A stretch of 10,358 nt of DNA from a virus. Positions 191 to 10,130 of this stretch are shown here, piece after piece. Position numbers and translations under genes: made by a program. How positions within the stretch are numbered: position 1 is the first letter of the stretch; each line of letters starts with the position of its first letter. The notes beneath the pieces were generated by a model. That model worked only from the letters and a program-made list of their open reading frames with translations. It was not told the DNA's origin and ran no database searches. Location: the UHGV virus genome UHGV-0379321. The stretch is one strand, 5' to 3'.

Positions 191-266
191 TGGTGCTGGT
201 TAACGGACTTGAACCGCTACCCATTCGCTTACAAGGCGACTGCTCTACCATTGGAGCTAAACCAGC
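191..266 (-). tRNA. tRNA-Thr (anticodon UGU), phage-encoded
   Basis: 76-nt cloverleaf folded by hand on the minus strand: 7-bp acceptor GCTGGTT/AACCAGC, D-stem GCTC/GAGC, anticodon loop CTTGTAA, T-arm AGCGG-TTCAAGT-CCGTT, discriminator A, encoded CCA. Differs from E. coli thrU. Confidence 0.7.
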
Positions 267-271
267 ATATT

Positions 272-346
272 TGGCGGGACAGCGTGGACTCGAACCACGA
301 TAAGAAGGTTAACAGCCTTCCGTAATGACCTTTATACGACTGACCC
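272..346 (-). tRNA. tRNA-Asn-like (anticodon GUU), phage-encoded, one acceptor-stem mismatch
   Basis: 75-nt fold: acceptor GGGTCAG/CTGTCCC with a U4-U69 mismatch, perfect 5-bp anticodon stem GAAGG/CCTTC, loop CTGTTAA, T-arm CGTGG-TTCGAGT-CCACG, discriminator G, encoded CCA. D-arm is weak (3 bp). Only 5 nt from the tRNA-Thr. Confidence 0.5.
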
Positions 347-2339: not shown

Positions 2340-2832
2340 TTTAATACCTCGCAAATTCGCCGAAACATTCATCCGCTTTATTTGCATATACTTTATGAGC
2401 TTCCTTTGGGTCATCGTAAAACCCAAGATTAACTTTCCTCTTGTTGATTACGATTTGCGCCCTCCATTTTCTTGATTTCTTATCCCATGAAACGCCTTTA
2501 TATCCTGATTTGTTATTTGCCTTTTTGTTTACGTTTTGGATGTTTTGAGATCGAGTTGCCAATCTAAGATTTGCTATACGATTGTCATCCCTAACGAGAT
2601 TTATGTGGTCGATATCACTTTTTGGTAGACTGCCATTCATATAGAGCCACGCCAGCCTGTGTGCCTTATAAAGTTTTCCATCGACTTTTATTACCCAGTA
2701 GCCTTCGCTACTCTTATGCCCTGCGATATCCCCAGCATTCATTCTCTGGCATTTCTTTACTTTCCATGTGAATTTCCCTGTTAACTCATCGTAGAGAAGG
2801 ACTTCTTTAAGTCTCTGCTGAGTTATTTGATT
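2262..2832 (-). mobile_element. About 570-bp homing-endonuclease insertion inside ninB (between NinB codons about 32 and 33)
   Basis: Sequence homologous to lambda ninB stops after ...CCAACCAAACCAATC (around 2833) and resumes at ...ATCATTGTCGAG... (around 2262); the intervening DNA encodes the HNH-AP2 domain plus 78 nt that supply a new NinB start. Confidence 0.65.
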
Positions 2833-2928
2833 GATTGGTTTGGTTGGGTCTGGAATGATTTGCTGTACTGCGTGAATAGCGTTCTGCTGATGGATGTGGC
2901 TTCTTAGTTCAAACGTTAGTTTCCTCAT
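2341..2928 (-). CDS. HNH homing endonuclease with C-terminal AP2 DNA-binding domain, fused in frame to the first 32 codons of ninB
   Basis: Residues 1-32 (MRKLTFELRSHIHQQNAIHAVQQIIPDPTKPI) match the lambda NinB N-terminus. The rest carries an HNH motif (DIDHINLVRDDNRIANLRLATRSQN) and an AP2-like segment (SGYKGVSWDKKSRKWRAQIVINKRKVNLGFYDDPKEAHKVY). GGAG RBS before ATG 2926-2928. Confidence 0.85.
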   Translation of the reverse strand: MRKLTFELRSHIHQQNAIHAVQQIIPDPTKPINQITQQRLKEVLLYDELTGKFTWKVKKCQRMNAGDIAGHKSSEGYWVIKVDGKLYKAHRLAWLYMNGSLPKSDIDHINLVRDDNRIANLRLATRSQNIQNVNKKANNKSGYKGVSWDKKSRKWRAQIVINKRKVNLGFYDDPKEAHKVYANKADECFGEFARY

Positions 2929-3540: not shown

Positions 3541-5934
3541 TCATACGTCAGCCCCTTGTGCATATCGTCTGCCACGCGCAGCAGGTGCATTTGATGCTGT
3601 GCAAATCTGTCTGGCTTCATCCTGGTCACATGCAACAAAGTGTCCGTTACAGAACCGCTGGTAAACCGTACCAAGTGAGCCAAAACGGTTTTTCGTCACG
3701 ATGATTTCAGCAAATGGCGCGGCGCTACTGTTCTCGTCATATACCGCTTCCCGATAGAGCATGATGATTGAGTCTGCGTCCTGCTCAATGCTTCCTGAAT
3801 CACGCAAATCTGCGTTTGTCGGGCGTTTGTTTGGTCGCTTCTCAACATCGCGAGAAAGCTGACTTAGGGAGATAACAGGCGTTTTCAGGTCTTTCGCCAT
3901 CGCCTTCAGGCTTCCGGAGATGTGAGCAATTGCGAGGTCGTTGCGGTCTGCTTTCGGCTTCTCAATCAGGCCAAGATAATCCGCCATGATGAGTGACAGG
4001 TTTGGATTTTCCTGTTTGTGTCGTTCTGCGATTGAGCGTATTTCTTCGACCGATAACCGCGAGGCATCGACTACCCATACATCCAAATCCGCAAGCTGAC
4101 TCATGCCGTTAGCAACGCGCGCCCAGCCTTCGTCATCCATCGCTGCAGGATTTCGCAGTACGCTAACCGACATCCTCCCGGCGTTGGCAATACTTCGCTC
4201 TGCAATCTGCAATGCGCTCATTTCCATTGAGAAAATCAATACTCCGCGCCGGACGTCAGAACCAGGAATAACACGGCTTGCAACGCCTTCGGCAATCTTC
4301 AGCGCCAGTTCCGTATTGTGCGTAACGATGTAATCCGTTGTCACATAGAGATGGCTAGGATGGCTTACCATGATGCAGAGACACTCTTCTGGCTCAACAA
4401 CTTCAACCGATTTGATACCCACACCAAGGTCGCCAAGCCTGTTAATCCCGAGATTTTTGCGTAAACGTGGTGAGTGAATTTGCTCTATCAAAGATGATGG
4501 CAACTTCATGCTGACCATGTGTGCATCAAGTCCGTCATGCTTCTCTCCTTTGTACGTGTAAACTATTCCCGTCCTGCTGGATTCTTTGGCGGTTCCACCT
4601 AAAGATCTAGCAAGCCTTACTAATCCTTTAGCTAATTTCTGACTGGATGAACTAAAGCGGATGCATCCGGACTTCTCAACCCAGCCATCTGTCTCGAGAA
4701 GGCCAGTTAAAACACCGGTACGTATTTCTTTGCTAGCACTAAAAATTTCTGCTGGGATTTCCTTCTCGGACGCACCTTTCCCGATCACCCCAATGCCACG
4801 TAGTTTGTCCAATAGTGGGTTCTTCTGGCCTTTTTGGTTGCTTATCAAATAATCATTCTCTCCTACCTTAACCAGTCGCAATGGTGCAATTGCATCACTC
4901 ATGCGGCTCAGGACATATTCTTCCGAGTTGGTGAATTTGATGCCTTTTATCAACGAACCGTCACCAAGTAGAGCACCAATAACCCAACCATCAAGGGAAA
5001 TATTTTTACCAAAGTCTCCGGTCAAGGATGGCACTCTTATTCTTCCCTGATAACGTGTTTTTTGTAGCATCCCAGCCAGCGCATCAGTATCAACAACGCG
5101 TTTACCAGTAAATCTTGATGATGAAATTTCCCATAAGTGGTTGTCGGCACATTTCACGCTACGTCCGTCTTCAAAGGTGACTAAATATGTGAATTTCTTC
5201 CCTTGTGGGAAGACGCCAATTACCTCCGAAGGAAGCCCGTCTATTGACGCGATGCGATCGCCAATTTTGACTTCTCCGTGAGTAGTCCAGGTGCCATCTG
5301 CAAGTAAAATCCCTTCGCTTAGCGCCATTGCTTTCCCCATACCAGGACGAGCAGCGATTATCACCAGGTCTTCCGCGTTCATCCCTCCGGTGATGGCGTC
5401 AAGTTCTTCGATTCCGGTCTTCAGGGTATCTGACTCTTCTCCGTTCCTCAGGCGCCTGTCAAGCGTGTCAGTGTAGTCAGTGATGATTTCCCCTAACCGT
5501 ACAGGTTTAACCTCGTCACGGGGCTTTCTGATGGCTGAGAGACGCTTTACAAGCTCGTCCATCGCCTGACTCGATGTATCGATGGTTCCGTTCTGAATTG
5601 GTTCACGCATTTCATCCATGATTTCCAGCACCAGACGGCGGTGATAGTTATCCGCGACCATTCCGGCATATCCCTTCAGGTTTGCGGCACTCGGGCAGTT
5701 TTTGCTGGTCATCAGGATTGACGTGAAATGCTCCTCTCCGCACGCCTCGGCAACCATCAGCGCGTCGATTAGGTTTCTGTTTCGCGCCTGCTTGCGGATA
5801 ACCTCGAAGGCTTTCCGGTAGAGCGGAATTGAAAACGCTTCCGGCTCCAGCGTTGCCAGAACGTCACTGGCAGTTGGTGTTAATCCACCAATCAGCAGAC
5901 CACCGATAACGCTCGCTTCGATATCCTGTCTCAT
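3541..5934 (-). CDS. Replicative DnaB-family helicase (P22 gene 12-type) interrupted by an intein; 797-aa precursor, 458-aa predicted spliced product
   Basis: DnaB N-terminal domain ([14 protein letters not shown]), Walker A split as ...[10 protein letters not shown] | intein | [10 protein letters not shown]..., DnaB motif [15 protein letters not shown]. Start ATG overlaps the O stop (ATGA). Confidence 0.9.
4315..5331 (-). mobile_element. Intein (339 aa) with LAGLIDADG homing-endonuclease domain, inserted between Lys and Thr of the helicase P-loop; class-3-like
   Basis: Starts with Ala after GMGK, ends in HN followed by +1 Thr. Two LAGLIDADG-type motifs ([15 protein letters not shown] and [15 protein letters not shown]). 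Block-B-like CADNHLW with Trp, a Cys in the F-block region (EECLCIMV) and Thr in VTHN fit the WCT pattern of class 3 inteins. Removing it restores GMGKTELAL. Confidence 0.8.
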
Positions 5935-7582: not shown

Positions 7583-7798
7583 TTAAGCGGCTTTGTGTTC
7601 CGGTGGGAACACGTCATCAAGACTGACTTTTGCGCCTAACTTGTTTAGGCACGCAACAAGAGCACGGCATGTTTTAAGGTCTGGGAAGCGACGACCAGAT
7701 TCCCAATGTCCGATAGCTCCCTGTGTGCATCCAACCGCCTTAGCAAGTGTTGTTTGAGAGATATTCAGTGACTCTCGATATTTTCGTAGGTTGCTCAT
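7583..7798 (-). CDS. cro: Cro-like HTH repressor (XRE family), 71 aa
   Basis: MSNLRKYRESLNISQTTLAKAVGCTQGAIGHWESGRRFPDL...; ATG 7796-7798 with GGAGGG RBS; divergent from cI across the operator region; shares the TQGxIGHW motif with the cI N-terminus. The six-frame ORF extending to 7969 is not favoured. Confidence 0.75.
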   Translation of the reverse strand: MSNLRKYRESLNISQTTLAKAVGCTQGAIGHWESGRRFPDLKTCRALVACLNKLGAKVSLDDVFPPEHKAA

Positions 7799-7824
7799 AT
7801 GCCCTCCATAGTAACCATGAAACA

Positions 7825-7853
7825 ATAATACGATATGTACTTTTTGAATGCAA
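7825..7853 (-). promoter_or_regulatory. Candidate PR promoter for cro (-35 TTGCAT, 17-bp spacer, -10 TATTAT) overlapping an operator site
   Basis: Hexamers read on the minus strand; the 13-bp GTAC-N5-GTA motif at 7828-7840 sits within the spacer and -10. Confidence 0.45.
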
Positions 7854-7899
7854 ACAAAAAATACATCTTGTGCATGGATGGTTTTAGTACAGAGCGTAA
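7828..7899. promoter_or_regulatory. OR operator region: two 13-bp GTAC-N5-GTA sites (7828-7840 and 7887-7899)
   Basis: GTACATATCGTAT (minus orientation) and GTACAGAGCGTAA share their core with GTACACATCGTAC at PL (8708-8720); located between divergent cro and cI. Confidence 0.45.
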
Positions 7900-7909
7900 T
7901 AATAAGGAT

Positions 7910-8569
7910 ATGAAAATGAAATGGTATGAACTGGCTAGATCCAGAATGAAAGAACTCGGCATAACTCAAGAGAAGTTAGCTGAAGAGCTTGGTATGACGC
8001 AGGGTGGAATTGGTCACTGGTTGCGCGGATCTCGTCATCCATCTCTTGACGAGATTGGTGTGGTGTTTAAATACCTTGGTATTGATAACGTCTCATTCAA
8101 CCACGACGGTACATTTTCACCTGTTGGCGAATACTCATCTGCCCCCGTTAAAAAACAATATGAGTACCCTGTTTTTTCTCATGTTCAGGCCGGGATGTTC
8201 TCGCCTGAGCTTAGAACCTTTACCAAAGGCGATGCGGAGAGATGGGTCAGCACAACCAAAAAAGCCAGTGATTGTGCGTTTTGGCTTGAAGTTGAAGGTA
8301 ATTCCATGACCGCACCAACAGGATCCAAGCCAAGCTTTCCTGACGGGATGTTAATTCTCGTTGACCCTGAGCAGGCTGTTGAGCCAGGTGATTTCTGCAT
8401 AGCCAGACTTGGTGGTGACGAGTTTACCTTCAAGAAACTGATCAGGGATAGCGGTCAGGTGTTCCTACAACCACTAAACCCGCAATATCCAATGATCCCA
8501 TGCAATGATAGCTGTTCCGTAGTAGGGAAAGTTATCGCCAGCCAGTGGCCTGAAGAGACATTTAGTTAA
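7910..8569 (+). CDS. cI: CI repressor: non-lambda N-terminal HTH domain fused to a lambda-type C-terminal S24 autopeptidase domain
   Basis: From [38 protein letters not shown]... to the end it is near-identical to lambda cI as recalled, including the GNSMTAPTG and FKKLIRD catalytic region. N-terminus ([36 protein letters not shown]) differs. Start ATG 7910 or 7916 (AAGGA RBS); the ORF from 7835 would leave no room for operators. Confidence 0.9.
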
Positions 8570-8600
8570 CAGCCTCACCACTCTAAAACACACAACAATA

Positions 8601-8630
8601 ACCCGACCTTAGCGTCGGGTTTTCTTTTTC
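8601..8630 (+). terminator. Intrinsic terminator downstream of cI
   Basis: 7-bp stem ACCCGAC/GTCGGGT, 6-nt loop, then TTTCTTTTT. Confidence 0.7.
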
Positions 8631-8694
8631 CAAAATATAAATCAATAAAATACAAAGTGTTATAAAAAACTAACCGCATTTAGAACATTTTGTA

Positions 8695-8723
8695 TTGACT
8701 CAATAAAGTACACATCGTACTAT
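8695..8723 (+). promoter_or_regulatory. Candidate PL promoter (-35 TTGACT, 17-bp spacer, -10 TACTAT) with overlapping OL operator site GTACACATCGTAC (8708-8720)
   Basis: Good -35/-10 match with correct spacing, about 45 nt upstream of nutL boxA; the operator motif is shared with OR. Confidence 0.55.
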
Positions 8724-8769
8724 TTAGCCATCAGCAGGAAGCTGGAAGCCAAACGGAACAGATTGGCAG

Positions 8770-8803
8770 GCTCTTTAACTTCGATGGTGCGCTGACAAAG
8801 CGC
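8770..8803 (+). promoter_or_regulatory. nutL site: boxA (GCTCTTTAA) plus boxB hairpin GCGCTGACAAAGCGC (P22-type)
   Basis: BoxB is identical to P22 nutL boxB as recalled (stem GCGC, GACAA-containing loop); boxA lies 10 nt upstream; located between PL and N. Confidence 0.8.
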
Positions 8804-8921
8804 GAACAGATACCAAACGAGATGGGTTTGGGGTGATGTGAATTGCAGCAGTAACGACAGCAACCAGAAGATCAGCATCTGGCGCATCACCACCAAAGCC
8901 ATTTCACATGAGGAAAACATC

Positions 8922-9230
8922 ATGACGGTAATCGTGTACGGAAAATCAACATTTGCAGGAAATGCCAAAACTCGCCGTCATGAGCGGCGCAGAAAGCTGG
9001 CTATCGAGCGTGATTCCATCTGCAACATCATCGATTCGATCTTCGGCACAGACAGTGAGGAAGCTGTTCAGGAAGAACCGAGAAAGCGTTTAAGTCTTTC
9101 TGAAAAAGCAATATCACTCGGCATCATCAGTAAATCAAATACAGATGCGAATGGCGGAAGCGTTTGTTTGCCTGAAGTTGCACTGTATGCTGCTGGTTAC
9201 AGGTCAATGAAATCAATTACGGCGAGATAG
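8922..9230 (+). CDS. N: Antitermination protein N, P22 gene 24-type
   Basis: MTVIVYGKSTFAGNAKTRRHERRRKLAIERDSICNIIDSIFG...GGSVCLPEVALYAAGYRSMKSITAR closely matches P22 gp24 including the arginine-rich RNA-binding motif; GAGGAAAA RBS. The longer six-frame ORF from 8838 is not favoured. Confidence 0.85.
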   Translation: MTVIVYGKSTFAGNAKTRRHERRRKLAIERDSICNIIDSIFGTDSEEAVQEEPRKRLSLSEKAISLGIISKSNTDANGGSVCLPEVALYAAGYRSMKSITAR

Positions 9231-9232
9231 AA

Positions 9233-9499
9233 ATGACTAGCAAACAAGTATCATATAAATGCTATTGCCCTTTATGTGGAAGAAAATTCAGCGCCAAGGC
9301 AGCATGGAAGCATATCAATGATTATCATCCAAAAGCATCAGAACGTGAGTTGATGATGATAAGAGATGTAAAACGAGAAAAAATTTCTTTCGCAACAAAG
9401 CCACTAAACGCCAACAAAAACGCAATATTGTATCAAATGCATCGTTCAAGTGGTCCAGATTATTCTGGAGGGCTTCCATCTCTTGGAAAGAAAAAATAA
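9233..9499 (+). CDS. Hypothetical 88-aa basic protein with a C2H2-like zinc-finger pattern
   Basis: CPLCGRKFSAKAAWKHINDYH fits C-x2-C-x12-H-x4-H. Starts 3 nt after the N stop; RBS is weak, so coding status is uncertain. Confidence 0.45.
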   Translation: MTSKQVSYKCYCPLCGRKFSAKAAWKHINDYHPKASERELMMIRDVKREKISFATKPLNANKNAILYQMHRSSGPDYSGGLPSLGKKK

Positions 9500-9525
9500 C
9501 CACGCTCACGCTGGTTTTTAATGAC

Positions 9526-9624
9526 ATAAATAACCGTATTTACTACCGCAAGCCACGCAGTGAAATGGGTGTGACTTGTGTTGGTCGCCAGAAAATGAAA
9601 TTAGGCAGCAAACCACTTATTTGA
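9526..9624 (+). pseudogene. 3' remnant of a lambda/21-type N gene (last ~30 codons, no start codon)
   Basis: Translation NNRIYYRKPRSEMGVTCVGRQKMKLGSKPLI* matches the C-terminus of lambda N (...YSKPGERGITCSGRQKIKGKSIPLI) and, more closely, phage 21 N as recalled. The frame is open back to 9349 but has no plausible start; its stop abuts the next gene's RBS. Confidence 0.55.
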
Positions 9625-9632
9625 GGTGAGAT

Positions 9633-9956
9633 ATGGAAGCATTAGTAGTAGAGCGAAGCGAGGATGGCTACTGGACGCACCCAGAATACGCCAACCTGTT
9701 TGGGGATAGAGAGGTAATTTCAGCTGATGAGTTCAGATCTTTCTGCAAGCAGCATGGCATTGAATCATCAATTGTTGAAATGGAAAACGACAACAATCAA
9801 ACGGTAATTGACGCGTATTTTGAAGATGGGAATCAAAACATCAGTGGATGGGAGCCAAGCATGCCAGATGGAGAAGGATGGTTTGTCGGTTCGATTCACG
9901 ATACAGAAGACGGTCCGATCTGCGTTTGGTTCAGGAATGTAGATAAGGCCGAATAG
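9633..9956 (+). CDS. Hypothetical strongly acidic 107-aa protein
   Basis: GAGGTGAG RBS 2-9 nt upstream of the ATG; about 24 Asp/Glu against 6 Lys/Arg; no family recognised; sits in the early-left operon where lambda carries ral. Confidence 0.55.
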   Translation: MEALVVERSEDGYWTHPEYANLFGDREVISADEFRSFCKQHGIESSIVEMENDNNQTVIDAYFEDGNQNISGWEPSMPDGEGWFVGSIHDTEDGPICVWFRNVDKAE

Positions 9957-9971
9957 TCGGCCTTTATTTTT
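9947..9971 (+). terminator. Intrinsic terminator after the acidic ORF
   Basis: Stem GGCCGA/TCGGCC, loop ATAG (contains the stop codon), followed by TTTATTTTT. Confidence 0.65.
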
Positions 9972-9991
9972 GGCATAAACAACAGAATAAA

Positions 9992-10037
9992 CATTGCACT
10001 GTGTATTCATTCCAACGAGTGAATACACGGAGCAATG
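9992..10037. repeat. 46-bp imperfect palindrome (18-nt arms, 16/18 complementary, 10-nt spacer)
   Basis: CATTGCACTGTGTATTCA ... TGAATACACGGAGCAATG; inner 9-bp arms GTGTATTCA/TGAATACAC are perfect. Lies between two intrinsic terminators in an intergenic region. Confidence 0.6.
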
Positions 10038-10090
10038 TCGCTCGTAACTAAACAGGAGCCGACTTGTTCTGATTATTGGAAATCTTCTTT

Positions 10091-10118
10091 GCCCTCCGAT
10101 GTGAGGGCGATTTTTTTT
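10091..10118 (+). terminator. Intrinsic terminator (possibly N-antiterminated) upstream of the next early gene
   Basis: Stem GCCCTC/GAGGGC, loop CGATGT, followed by an 8-T run; directly followed by a GGAGG RBS and ATG at 10131. Confidence 0.6.
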
Positions 10119-10130
10119 GATGGAGGATAT

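Follow-up and report, generated by a model that had tools for sequence, protein, structure and literature searches.

Closest Described Phages

Phage 21 carries a complete N gene (OL657228, CPT_21_50, annotated as 'antiterminator') with a start codon, codons 1-69 and an arginine-rich motif; a short unannotated stretch and then ral follow it. In SH2026Stx1 and many Stx1/Stx2 phages, N is one intact hybrid gene of 113 aa (AVO22780.1), with a P22-type front and a 21-type tail. In the HK022-type Nun phages mEp235, mEpX1 and Lambdavirus PDP110P1, a complete N gene is followed by nun; the original HK022 nun paper, by Oberto et al. in 1989, reportedly discussed N-related sequence near nun. We compared these systems with a 10,358-nt stretch of the virus genome UHGV-0379321 (hereafter the window), in which an intact P22-type N gene and an 88-aa zinc-finger gene are followed at 9532-9624 by the 3' end of a second N gene. 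All features described between 8695 and 9974 lie on the + strand. The comparison indicates that 9532-9624 is very probably a non-coding pseudogene fragment of a phage-21-type N gene, located at a mosaic joint in a lambdoid pL operon.

Phage 21 N resembles the remnant in codons 70-99 and the stop codon, and the likeness continues through the ribosome-binding site (RBS) and ATG of the next gene to 9639 (97.2% nucleotide identity by BLAST over 9532-9639, beneath the annotated 'antiterminator' CDS). In contrast, no counterpart of its codons 1-69, including the arginine-rich boxB-binding motif, was found in the remnant, its nutL is unmatched in the window, and a 107-aa gene follows here in place of the unannotated stretch and ral. 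The hybrid N of SH2026Stx1 matches the window on both sides: at the front, its leader and first 66 codons share 96.5% identity with 8723-9121, and at the end its last 94 nt reproduce 9532-9625 at 100% identity. Between these segments SH2026Stx1 has 49 nt of 21-type sequence, whereas the window has 410 nt (9122-9531) containing the C-terminus of the P22-type N, the 88-aa gene and a hairpin; the crossover between the N types lies at a short stretch common to both (AAAGCA..ATCACTCGG). An intact hybrid N gene thus exists with exactly the flanks found here.

The nun phages share the order of the window, namely a complete N, a second gene, a hairpin with T-run and A(A/T)TG, and an N remnant. The second gene starts 2 nt after the N stop in mEp235 and after an annotated 8-nt gap in mEpX1; PDP110P1 is unannotated. 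Their remnants begin at N codon 70 and are identical to that of the window at 89-91 of 93 nt. They differ from the window in that the slot holds nun, a gene without relation to the zinc-finger gene, the N ahead of it is 21-like, the remnant encodes NLIYY rather than NRIYY, and the terminator is strong (-10.3 kcal/mol, against -6.0 here). A full-text literature search for a described N remnant behind nun returned nothing relevant, and a Nun structure paper only cites older work.

The same element is annotated in E. coli 160-11H1 (NZ_AP031375; 1534-1632 of locus L025) as pseudogene ACZ5MN_RS07415, in the same context of N, WP_130078254.1 (the RefSeq identifier of the 88-aa protein) and remnant. 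The NCBI pipeline PGAP, an independent source, starts this pseudogene at the equivalent of 9532. Its label, 'transcriptional antitermination N peptide; incomplete; missing N-terminus', already marks the element as an N pseudogene in this one genome. Unlike the window, the 3' third there comes from another N allele (...RQKQRGKSIPAYYD before the stop) and a different gene comes next. Klebsiella phage phiKp_30 (LC768498; phiKp30_020 and phiKp30_030) is 98.4% identical to 8676-9481, covering N and the first 83 zinc-finger codons, but 9482-9958 is missing, and with it the native end of the gene, the hairpin, the remnant and the 107-aa gene; its ORF of 97 aa has an unrelated tail. We ruled out phiKp_30 as the donor of the left segment, given that its zinc-finger ORF has lost the conserved C-terminus of the family. 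Because diverged homologues keep ...GGLPSLGKKR-stop, it is best read as a deletion derivative.

Intact N Gene and Predicted Zinc-Finger Gene Upstream of the Remnant

A PL-like promoter (TTGACT-17 nt-TACTAT, 8695-8723), located between a cI-like repressor gene (7835-8569; Peptidase_S24 and HTH) and nutL/N, heads the leftward early operon, whose direction in the window is rightward; the promoter agrees with the consensus at 9 of 12 positions in a scan, and its putative function is assigned from position only. The nutL site at 8770-8803 consists of a boxA-like element, GCTCTTTAA (8770-8778), and a boxB hairpin, GCGCTGACAAAGCGC (8789-8803), whose sequence we take to equal that of the P22 nutL boxB. 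Phage 21 has an annotated boxA-L and nutL at the equivalent place. Rfam models at gathering thresholds matched nothing within 8600-10100 and two tRNAs elsewhere.

The N gene at 8922-9230 encodes 102 aa with the C-terminus ...CLPEVALYAAGYRSMKSITAR. Its product matched the Pfam profile N_peptide (PF25694) with an E-value of 6.5e-37 at 126.5 bits (cutoff 27.9), residues 1-102 aligning with profile positions 1-100, and phrog_271 with an E-value of 1.6e-36. The arginine-rich N-terminus GNAKTRRHERRRKLAIER is present, the boxA-like and boxB elements lie upstream, and RefSeq names a near-identical gene 'transcriptional antitermination N peptide'. Judged by the full-length match above threshold, the arginine-rich N-terminus and the upstream nut site, 8922-9230 is a member of the lambdoid N family, in agreement with the intact P22-type N that the preliminary description had placed upstream of the remnant. 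The working antiterminator would be this complete P22-type N, with its cognate nutL upstream.

The 88-aa gene at 9233-9499 starts 2 nt past the N stop and encodes a predicted small C2H2-type zinc-finger protein with the C-terminal tail GGLPSLGKK(K/R); it matched phrog_20899 at 88/88 positions (E 2e-64). The preliminary description had asked for scrutiny of the coding status of this ORF. Compared with its homologue in locus L013 (68% nucleotide identity), differences at the three codon positions numbered 22/19/55, with pN 0.21 and pS 0.91, and the overlapping frame is closed in every homologue examined. With strong purifying selection on the one frame and closure of the other, the coding status of the 88-aa gene is not in doubt. 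In a 13-member family alignment, F19, H27, I28, H32, L40, R44, D45 and R48 are invariant, and C12, P13, C15, A35 and I43 are at least 90% conserved. AlphaFold predicted a beta-beta-alpha finger plus a helix, with pLDDT of ~87 over residues 11-50 and a low-confidence tail.

The finger assignment is a prediction. All Pfam finger models scored below cutoff against the 88-aa protein (zf-C2H2, 14.1 against 25.2 bits), its Cys-to-His spacing is 11 residues where the usual C2H2 spacing is 12, and a Foldseek search of the model against the PDB gave only insignificant finger-like matches (E 2.4 or worse); in phmmer searches, multi-finger proteins matched through the Cys/His segment. The family is located just after N genes, and protein identity among the zinc-finger genes beside remnants is 64-75%. 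A spurious ORF would not show this bias between codon positions, a conserved family and such a predicted fold; on this comparative evidence 9233-9499 is a real gene under strong purifying selection with a product predicted to be of C2H2 type.

The N Remnant and Its Left Edge

Across 9532-9624, 91 of 93 nt are identical to the 3' end of phage 21 N, and 93 of 93 to the 3' end of the intact hybrid N of SH2026Stx1. The remnant comprises codons 70-99 and the stop of a phage-21-type N, without start codon or arginine-rich motif, and 28 of its 30 translated residues equal those of phage 21 N. The 41-aa translation of 9499-9621 matched phrog_271 ('anti-termination protein N-like') with an E-value of 5.3e-13, the match being confined to the C-terminal positions 141-170 of the 176-position profile; the same translation gave no match to Pfam N_peptide (PF25694) at E<=1. 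DNA alignment and phrog_271 thus reproduce the N-like C-terminus that had been noticed in a start-less frame. The likeness to lambda N itself is weaker, at 14/30 residues when the two are compared without gaps.

The left edge is abrupt. Identity to intact N genes is 97-100% at the nucleotide level rightward from 9532, and there is zero N homology to the left of it. The recombination joint, expected by the preliminary description somewhere near 9500-9540, is thereby pinned to the nucleotide, at 9531/9532. The N-derived part is limited to the last 30 codons and the stop, although the open frame to which it belongs is longer: it extends from 9349 to 9624 (92 codons), its translation ends ...NRIYYRKPRSEMGVTCVGRQKMKLGSKPLI, and its portion 9349-9531 is without N homology. 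As proposed, this frame has no usable start. An upstream start was sought for 9349-9624 and none exists; the ORF listing holds no + strand ORF of at least 30 aa with an ATG, GTG or TTG start that ends at 9624, and the in-frame ATGs and GTG, all inside the remnant, would yield at most 19 aa.

With its partial homology, abrupt edge, lack of translation signals and variable presence and length, the element is what a gene remnant at a phage mosaic joint looks like. It is an ordinary scar of lambdoid-phage mosaicism, and the fossil itself is of small importance; gene ends cut short where modules meet are debris that such mosaicism is expected to leave.

A Joint Shared with nun Phages and Other Prophages

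What is new is the layout around the scar, which consists of a stop codon, a hairpin, a T-run, A(A/T)TG and an N 3' remnant. In the window, the hairpin at 9500-9519 (CCACGC-TCAC-GCTGG, with one bulge, followed by T5) is weak, with an MFE of -6.0 kcal/mol and z of -1.84, and a terminator pattern scan did not call it; equivalents reach -13.3 kcal/mol in L013 and -10.3 in mEp235, and clean hairpins with T6 occupy homologous positions in L013, L023 and mEp235. We regard the hairpin of the window as a decayed relative of these strong terminators. The spacer from the T-run to the remnant, AATGACATAAAT (9520-9531), is unrelated to phage 21 N at that position, and A(A/T)TG follows the T-run in 7/7 aligned loci.

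This layout recurs behind nun in mEp235, mEpX1 and PDP110P1, where the left end of the remnant is likewise N codon 70, and behind two diverged zinc-finger homologues (L013-L018 and L023), where the remnants are longer and derive from other N subtypes. Remnant lengths are ~58 codons in L013/L014, ~34 in L023, 30 here and in the nun phages, and 7 in mEp213; erosion by deletion may account for the shorter ones. Loci also differ in how the remnant is phased against the upstream gene: it is in -1 here, in -1 with a closing TGA in mEp235, and in phase in L013/L014 (two stops in between) and L023 (one stop). Such variation between loci is what non-coding DNA would be expected to show.

All remnants examined are nevertheless still open in the N frame. 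Those of L014 and L023 are ~73-78% identical to the nearest intact N genes of isolated phages, and at that divergence we put the probability of finding no stop in 58 codons at ~0.3-0.4, a figure that is our estimate and not a computed test. Selection on the frame may explain the openness; equally, it may reflect recombinational refreshment with intact N alleles together with short length. The remnants show few independent differences. The Arg of NRIYY is kept in phage 21 N, SH2026Stx1 N and the L023 remnant (RRIWY), is replaced by Leu in the remnants behind nun (NLIYY), and becomes Pro-coding in A28 through G9536C. These losses of the Arg, confined to some remnants, may point to relaxed constraint.

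At ~98.7% identity, the arrangement is present in several E. coli prophages (L009-L012, L019, L024 and L025). At least 80% of 9233-9640 was found in 14 of 5426 complete E. coli genomes, and some part of it in 1431; the part matched is almost always the stretch at the N 3' end, for the most part within genes annotated as N. Because other phages show the same layout, the joint is older than the UHGV-0379321 prophage and is shared. The preliminary description had read it as the replacement, in this phage, of the 5' part of an ancestral 21-type N by a P22-type PL-nutL-N segment. The mosaic joint stands, but the scenario is too specific: the joint is not private to this prophage, and the left segment also holds the 88-aa gene and the hairpin/T-run. 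In outline, recombination would have placed everything left of 9532 before the 3' part of another N gene.

Downstream Module Boundary

On its right side the remnant passes into a recurrent module boundary at 9601-9639, made up of the last ~7 N codons, the stop, the RBS GAGGTGA (9623-9629) and the ATG at 9633. The remnant's TGA (9622-9624) overlaps this RBS, which belongs to the 107-aa gene, in line with the earlier observation that the remnant ends at the RBS of the next gene. Homology edges fall within or next to the boundary: mEp213 starts at 9601, A28 ends at 9637, L019 ends at 9635, and most matches to E. coli genomes stop at 9625-9640. Copies of the boundary precede other genes in L013 (3499-3537) and L014 (3268-3298). 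The ~40-nt patch of N end and RBS is in this way documented as a repeated module boundary.

The 107-aa gene (9633-9956) encodes a hypothetical protein that matched phrog_1372 (E 1.2e-43) and is likewise annotated as hypothetical in mEp213 (mEp213_045) and in RefSeq prophages. The preliminary description had suggested comparison with phages that carry an intact 21-type N directly before this gene; a search for such a phage found none. The 107-aa gene, wherever present, comes after this remnant or, in the case of mEp213, after the one of 7 codons.

The 3' end of the remnant may survive because it carries the stop, RBS and ATG context of the next gene. Since this short sequence is common to many N alleles, its last ~40 nt could act as a homology patch for the exchange of downstream modules. 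The remnant still recombines, as its 3' third has been swapped in 160-11H1 and breakpoints cluster at 9601-9639. A stronger version of this idea holds that selection keeps the remnant as a cis element, with its last ~30-40 nt serving as a downstream initiation region and as a homology 'linker' for module swaps, and with the hairpin serving as the first N-dependent pL terminator. GAGGTGA and the ATG do abut or overlap the remnant's stop, breakpoints crowd at 9601-9639 with copies before unrelated genes in L013, L014 and mEp213 (where 7 codons are left), recombination inside the remnant is seen in 160-11H1, and the hairpin/T-run is held in place in the seven aligned loci. However, selection of this kind accounts for the last ~40 nt only and not for 9532-9600, the hairpin in the window is weak and uncalled, and any conserved patch between variable modules would show clustered breakpoints, selected or not. 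We consider maintenance as a cis element a tentative possibility, clearly less probable than a scar.

Frameshifting, Read-Through and the Overlapping Frame

A different way to give the remnant a role is translation as the tail of the zinc-finger protein. A -1 slip on AAG AAA AAA (9488-9496) before the TAA, aided by a hairpin at 9500-9514, would produce ...SLGKK-ITTLTLVFNDINNRIYYRKPRSEMGVTCVGRQKMKLGSKPLI, a protein of ~129 aa that joins the zinc finger to the N C-terminal region. In lambda N, the C-terminal region contacts RNA polymerase. No stop interrupts the -1 frame between 9349 and 9621, the A6 run adjoins the TAA and the hairpin begins 4 nt past the run; in L023, one TAA is all that separates the zinc-finger gene from a remnant in the same frame. 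An open -1 frame of 50 codons up to the stop of the 88-aa gene arose in 0.3% of codon shuffles, an unusual outcome that comes from a post hoc test of a feature not conserved among homologues. The Logan assembly P0004 encodes a 130-aa fusion, with the frameshift difference further upstream, after residue 68, but this is one contig and may be an assembly error.

The homologues argue against such a slip. L013/L014 have an interrupted A-run (AAG AAA AGA TGA), a -1 frame that ends short of the remnant, and two in-frame stops in between; behind nun, a TGA closes the -1 frame two codons ahead of the remnant; and the native GGLPSLGKK(K/R)-stop is retained in family members without any remnant, such as L021. 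Known frameshift sites have an X XXY YYZ heptamer and a spacer of ~5-9 nt. Here G AAA AAA fits the heptamer only in part, and the 3 nt before the hairpin make a shorter spacer than those of known sites. With a partial heptamer, a short spacer and a shifted frame that is not conserved, we rejected 9488-9514 as a programmed -1 frameshift site, and a slip yielding the fusion is very unlikely.

We assign a similarly slight chance to the broader proposal that the N tail is alive, whether through the -1 slip, or read-through of the TAA in L023, to give a chimeric transcription factor in the slot held by nun in HK022-type phages, or, in a milder form, with 'N - slot - terminator - N remnant' as a conserved site whose cargo is exclusion or regulatory factors directed at the polymerase, the C2H2 family being a second occupant beside nun. 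Weaker still is the suggestion that 9349-9624 is an independent overlapping gene, or that this long start-less frame is coding and the 88-aa ORF spurious; as far as sequence evidence goes, we dismiss it because the frame, although open for 92 codons, has no ATG, GTG or TTG giving an ORF of at least 30 aa that ends at 9624 and is stop-ridden in all diverged homologues, while the 88-aa frame is conserved with third-position bias and its putative zinc ligands.

The remnant is thus best taken as a non-coding scar; lacking both a start and the arginine-rich part that binds RNA, it would not be translated as N. The open stretch before it, 9349-9531, runs in the -1 frame across part of the 88-aa gene and the sequence 3' of it; the same frame carries several stops in L013, L014, L023 and L021, and its openness here is probably accidental.

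The comparison with the nun phages also bears on the zinc-finger gene. Nun and this uncharacterised conserved C2H2 family share one slot, directly after N and before the shared putative terminator and N remnant. Because the slot is common with nun, the C2H2 family can reasonably be put forward as a candidate for a function that is expressed early and relates to transcription or exclusion.

Further downstream, a strong intrinsic-terminator-like hairpin at 9945-9974, with an eight-pair stem and a T-rich tail (MFE -13 kcal/mol, z -3.56), overlaps the stop of the 107-aa gene.

Prophage context

The sequence in the window is that of a lambdoid prophage's early region. The minus strand carries Q (438–983), NinG, an HNH/AP2 ORF, a DnaB-like helicase, an O-like replication gene and cII. 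A cI-like LexA-family repressor gene (7835–8569), followed by the pL operon, occupies the plus strand. Positions 8600–10130, which are approximately 98.7–98.9% identical to prophages of E. coli GN04171, AVS0578, A28, EC20, E423 and 160-11H1, include a PL-like promoter (8695–8723). A boxA-like site and boxB hairpin were read from the sequence at 8770–8803, and a complete N gene occupies 8922–9230, matching Pfam N_peptide over its full length (126.5 bits) and having a C-terminus of the P22 type. The EC20 prophage (L012, 1437–1698) has approximately 180 bp extra between nutL and N, annotated as 'tRNA-OTHER': a stretch of about 260 bp takes the place of about 82 bp of the window, between the equivalents of 8835 and 8918. 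The annotation of its N has two additional codons, which gives an overlap of 4 nt with the putative zinc-finger gene that follows.

The end of a phage 21-type N gene

The preliminary description proposed a frame lacking a start codon that ends in about 30 codons of lambda/21-type N, and this is borne out. The frame is open from 9349 to the TGA at 9622–9624, its translation ending ...NRIYYRKPRSEMGVTCVGRQKMKLGSKPLI before the stop, and the ORF listing of the window holds no ORF of at least 30 aa with an ATG, GTG or TTG start that ends at this TGA. In a BLAST search of isolated phages, 9532–9639 fell, at 97.2% identity, on the phage 21 gene annotated as an antiterminator; 9532–9624 matches the last 30 codons and stop of phage 21 N at 91 of 93 nt. 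Stx phage SH2026Stx1 has an intact N whose 3' end it matches at 93 of 93. The 41-aa translation hits an N-like PHROG (E = 5.3e-13), at C-terminal profile positions only. As also proposed, the frame ends at the ribosome-binding site of the next gene: the TGA shares nucleotides with GAGGTGA (9623–9629), followed at 9633 by the start of the 107-aa gene.

The finding is real and its original interpretation correct in outline. In kind, the feature is ordinary, a piece of a gene left at a joint in a lambdoid mosaic, and automated annotation had already flagged it: for the same element of E. coli 160-11H1, PGAP independently gives 'transcriptional antitermination N peptide, missing N-terminus' as a pseudogene that starts at the equivalent of 9532. 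What is added here is that the joint is placed to the nucleotide, that the adjacent ORF is shown to be a real and conserved gene, and that a layout of N, slot gene, terminator and N remnant ties the locus to the nun locus.

The 88-aa ORF is a gene

The coding status of the 88-aa ORF (9233–9499) had been marked for scrutiny; phrog_20899 coverage, codon-position bias and a conserved family all support it, and the ORF is a real gene. Its protein covers phrog_20899 end to end. Against the homologue at locus L013 (2501–2767; 68% nucleotide identity, 88 codons, gapless), differences fall 22/19/55 by codon position, with pN of 0.21 and saturated synonymous sites. An exhaustive HMMER search recovered small relatives down to approximately 35–45% identity. 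Family members also lie at L023 (653–925) and L021 (1501–1755). In a 13-member alignment, F19, H27, I28, H32, L40, R44, D45 and R48 are invariant, C12, P13, C15, A35 and I43 are kept in at least 90% of members, an IRDARR-like motif occurs in most, and a C-terminal GGLPSLGKKR tail occurs in about half.

AlphaFold predicts a beta-beta-alpha finger plus a helix, with a low-confidence tail. A fold search with this model returned nothing significant, and all Pfam finger models scored below their cutoffs on the protein. The family is one of small, uncharacterised C2H2-type proteins.

Position of the joint

Among isolated phages and E. coli genomes, no intact N gene matches the window left of 9532. 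Homology reaches back to 9515 only in mEp235, mEpX1 and PDP110P1, and what matches there is another N remnant, likewise without annotation and located behind nun. The zinc-finger stop at 9497–9499 is native, since the diverged homologues share the window's ending, ...GGLPSLGKK(K/R)-stop, without exception. The interval 9500–9531 is non-genic, comprising a weak bulged hairpin and T5 (-6.0 kcal/mol), then a 12-nt spacer. Klebsiella phage phiKp_30 matches 8676–9481 and resumes at 9959; with the window's stop being native, it is best read as a deletion derivative.

A layout shared with the nun locus

The zinc-finger gene starts 2 nt past the N stop in the window, at L013–L018 and at L023; at L021 the gene before it is putatively N-like and the gap is 34 nt. 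The nun gene of mEp235 occupies the same place, likewise 2 nt behind an N stop. Of seven loci that we aligned, two carry the same zinc-finger allele as the window, another two carry diverged alleles and the remaining three have nun. In each, the slot-gene stop leads into a G+C-rich hairpin with a T-run behind it, then A(A/T)TG and N-derived sequence.

The remnants vary in length and N subtype. That of L013 and L014 spans about 58 codons (LSGCVRAD...GKSIPLI, then stop), that of L023 about 34 (ending ...RRIWYKDTNPLGNKIHAVQRMRGKSMPLI and stop), and those of the window and the nun phages about 30, with a common left end at N codon 70. Phage mEp213 retains about 7 codons, GSKPLI and stop only, ahead of the same 107-aa gene. 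The spacers are alike (...GAAAAT in L013, ...TAAAT in the window, ...GAACT, GAAAA or GAACA behind nun), a resemblance that fits a single old joint; we infer that internal deletions shortened the remnant thereafter. Separately, the mEp213 annotation shows two N genes, which differ in type and lie approximately 1.1 kb apart (L003, 482–814 and 1967–2239).

Hybrid N genes of Stx phages

Unlike the window, with its N and separate remnant, SH2026Stx1 and many Stx phages have a single intact 113-aa N. In SH2026Stx1 (L006, 1702–2043), P22-type codons 1–66 are joined to a phage 21-type C-terminal part at AAAGCA..ATCACTCGG, a short stretch common to both N types. The first 66 codons belong to a match with window 8723–9121 at 96.5%, and the last 94 nt equal 9532–9625 exactly. 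In place of 410 nt in the window (P22-type N tail, zinc-finger gene and hairpin), this gene has 49 nt that are 21-type. Many records of Stx1 and Stx2 phages contain the same hybrid N. Either arrangement could have given rise to the other, and the order of events is not polarised.

Function and fate of the remnant

The segment 9532–9624 is very probably an untranslated remnant. The frame of the remnants relative to the upstream gene is inconsistent between loci, and at the conserved Arg of NRIYY some of them differ, with Leu behind nun and a Pro codon in A28; both points fit non-coding DNA. The N gene at 8922–9230 would provide N function; the zinc-finger gene is probably co-transcribed with it from pL and, given the 2-nt spacing, probably translationally coupled to it. 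The hairpin at 9500–9519 may be a decayed early terminator.

A partly compatible reading, possible though doubtful, is that the last part of the remnant is kept for two things it carries, a recombination patch and the initiation region of the next gene.

Homology to mEp213 starts at 9601, that to A28 stops at 9637 and that to the E. coli prophage locus L019 at 9635, and copies of the same 30–40 nt or so stand ahead of other genes in L013 and L014. Some part of 9233–9640 occurs in 1431 of 5426 complete E. coli genomes. What they contain is almost always the 3'-end stretch of N; its left ends are nested (9515, 9532, 9544, 9571–9572) and most right ends fall at 9625–9640. The zinc-finger gene and remnant occur together in only 14 of the 5426. 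The N end with its ribosome-binding site is thus a widely shared patch where modules are exchanged. In 160-11H1 (L025, 1590–1640), the last third of the remnant comes from another N allele (...RQKQRGKSIPAYYD and stop), with the switch at GGTCGCCAGAA, which shows homologous exchange within a remnant that still recombines.

Fusion of the zinc-finger protein to the N tail, by -1 frameshift or read-through, is very improbable: one Logan contig (P0004) encodes a 130-aa fusion in the -1 frame, but the arrangement is not conserved. The -1 frame is stop-free for 50 codons over the 3' half of the 88-aa gene (9349–9499), which is statistically unusual (0.3% of codon shuffles), and is closed in all diverged homologues, with many stops at L013, L014, L023 and L021. 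Given a post hoc shuffle test and no conservation of the open frame, we treat this openness as accidental. At L023 (923–1057), a locus of 64% identity, the remnant lies in the zinc-finger gene's own frame with one TAA only between them and the terminator hairpin inside the shared frame; this is the one locus where read-through would yield a fusion, and the shared frame is probably coincidence.

Other features of the early region

The DnaB-like replicative helicase (3541–5934, minus strand; 797 aa) has LAGLIDADG_3 and Hom_end matches at about residues 393–454, between its DnaB N- and C-terminal domains, and looks like a phage helicase interrupted by an intein with a homing endonuclease. A 195-aa ORF with HNH_3 and AP2 domains (2341–2928, minus strand), homing-endonuclease-like, sits within the nin region, with the replication genes on one side and NinG/Q on the other. 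The cro-side ORF (7583–7969, minus strand; 128 aa, TTG start) and the repressor ORF (244 aa) overlap at their 5' ends by approximately 135 nt; their true starts are probably internal: in equivalent prophages, RefSeq gives 71 aa for the HTH protein and 231 aa for the LexA-family protein. Just downstream of Q are tRNA genes Thr(tgt) and Asn(gtt) (191–346, minus strand), and the plus-strand ORF at 40–303 that overlaps both is probably spurious.
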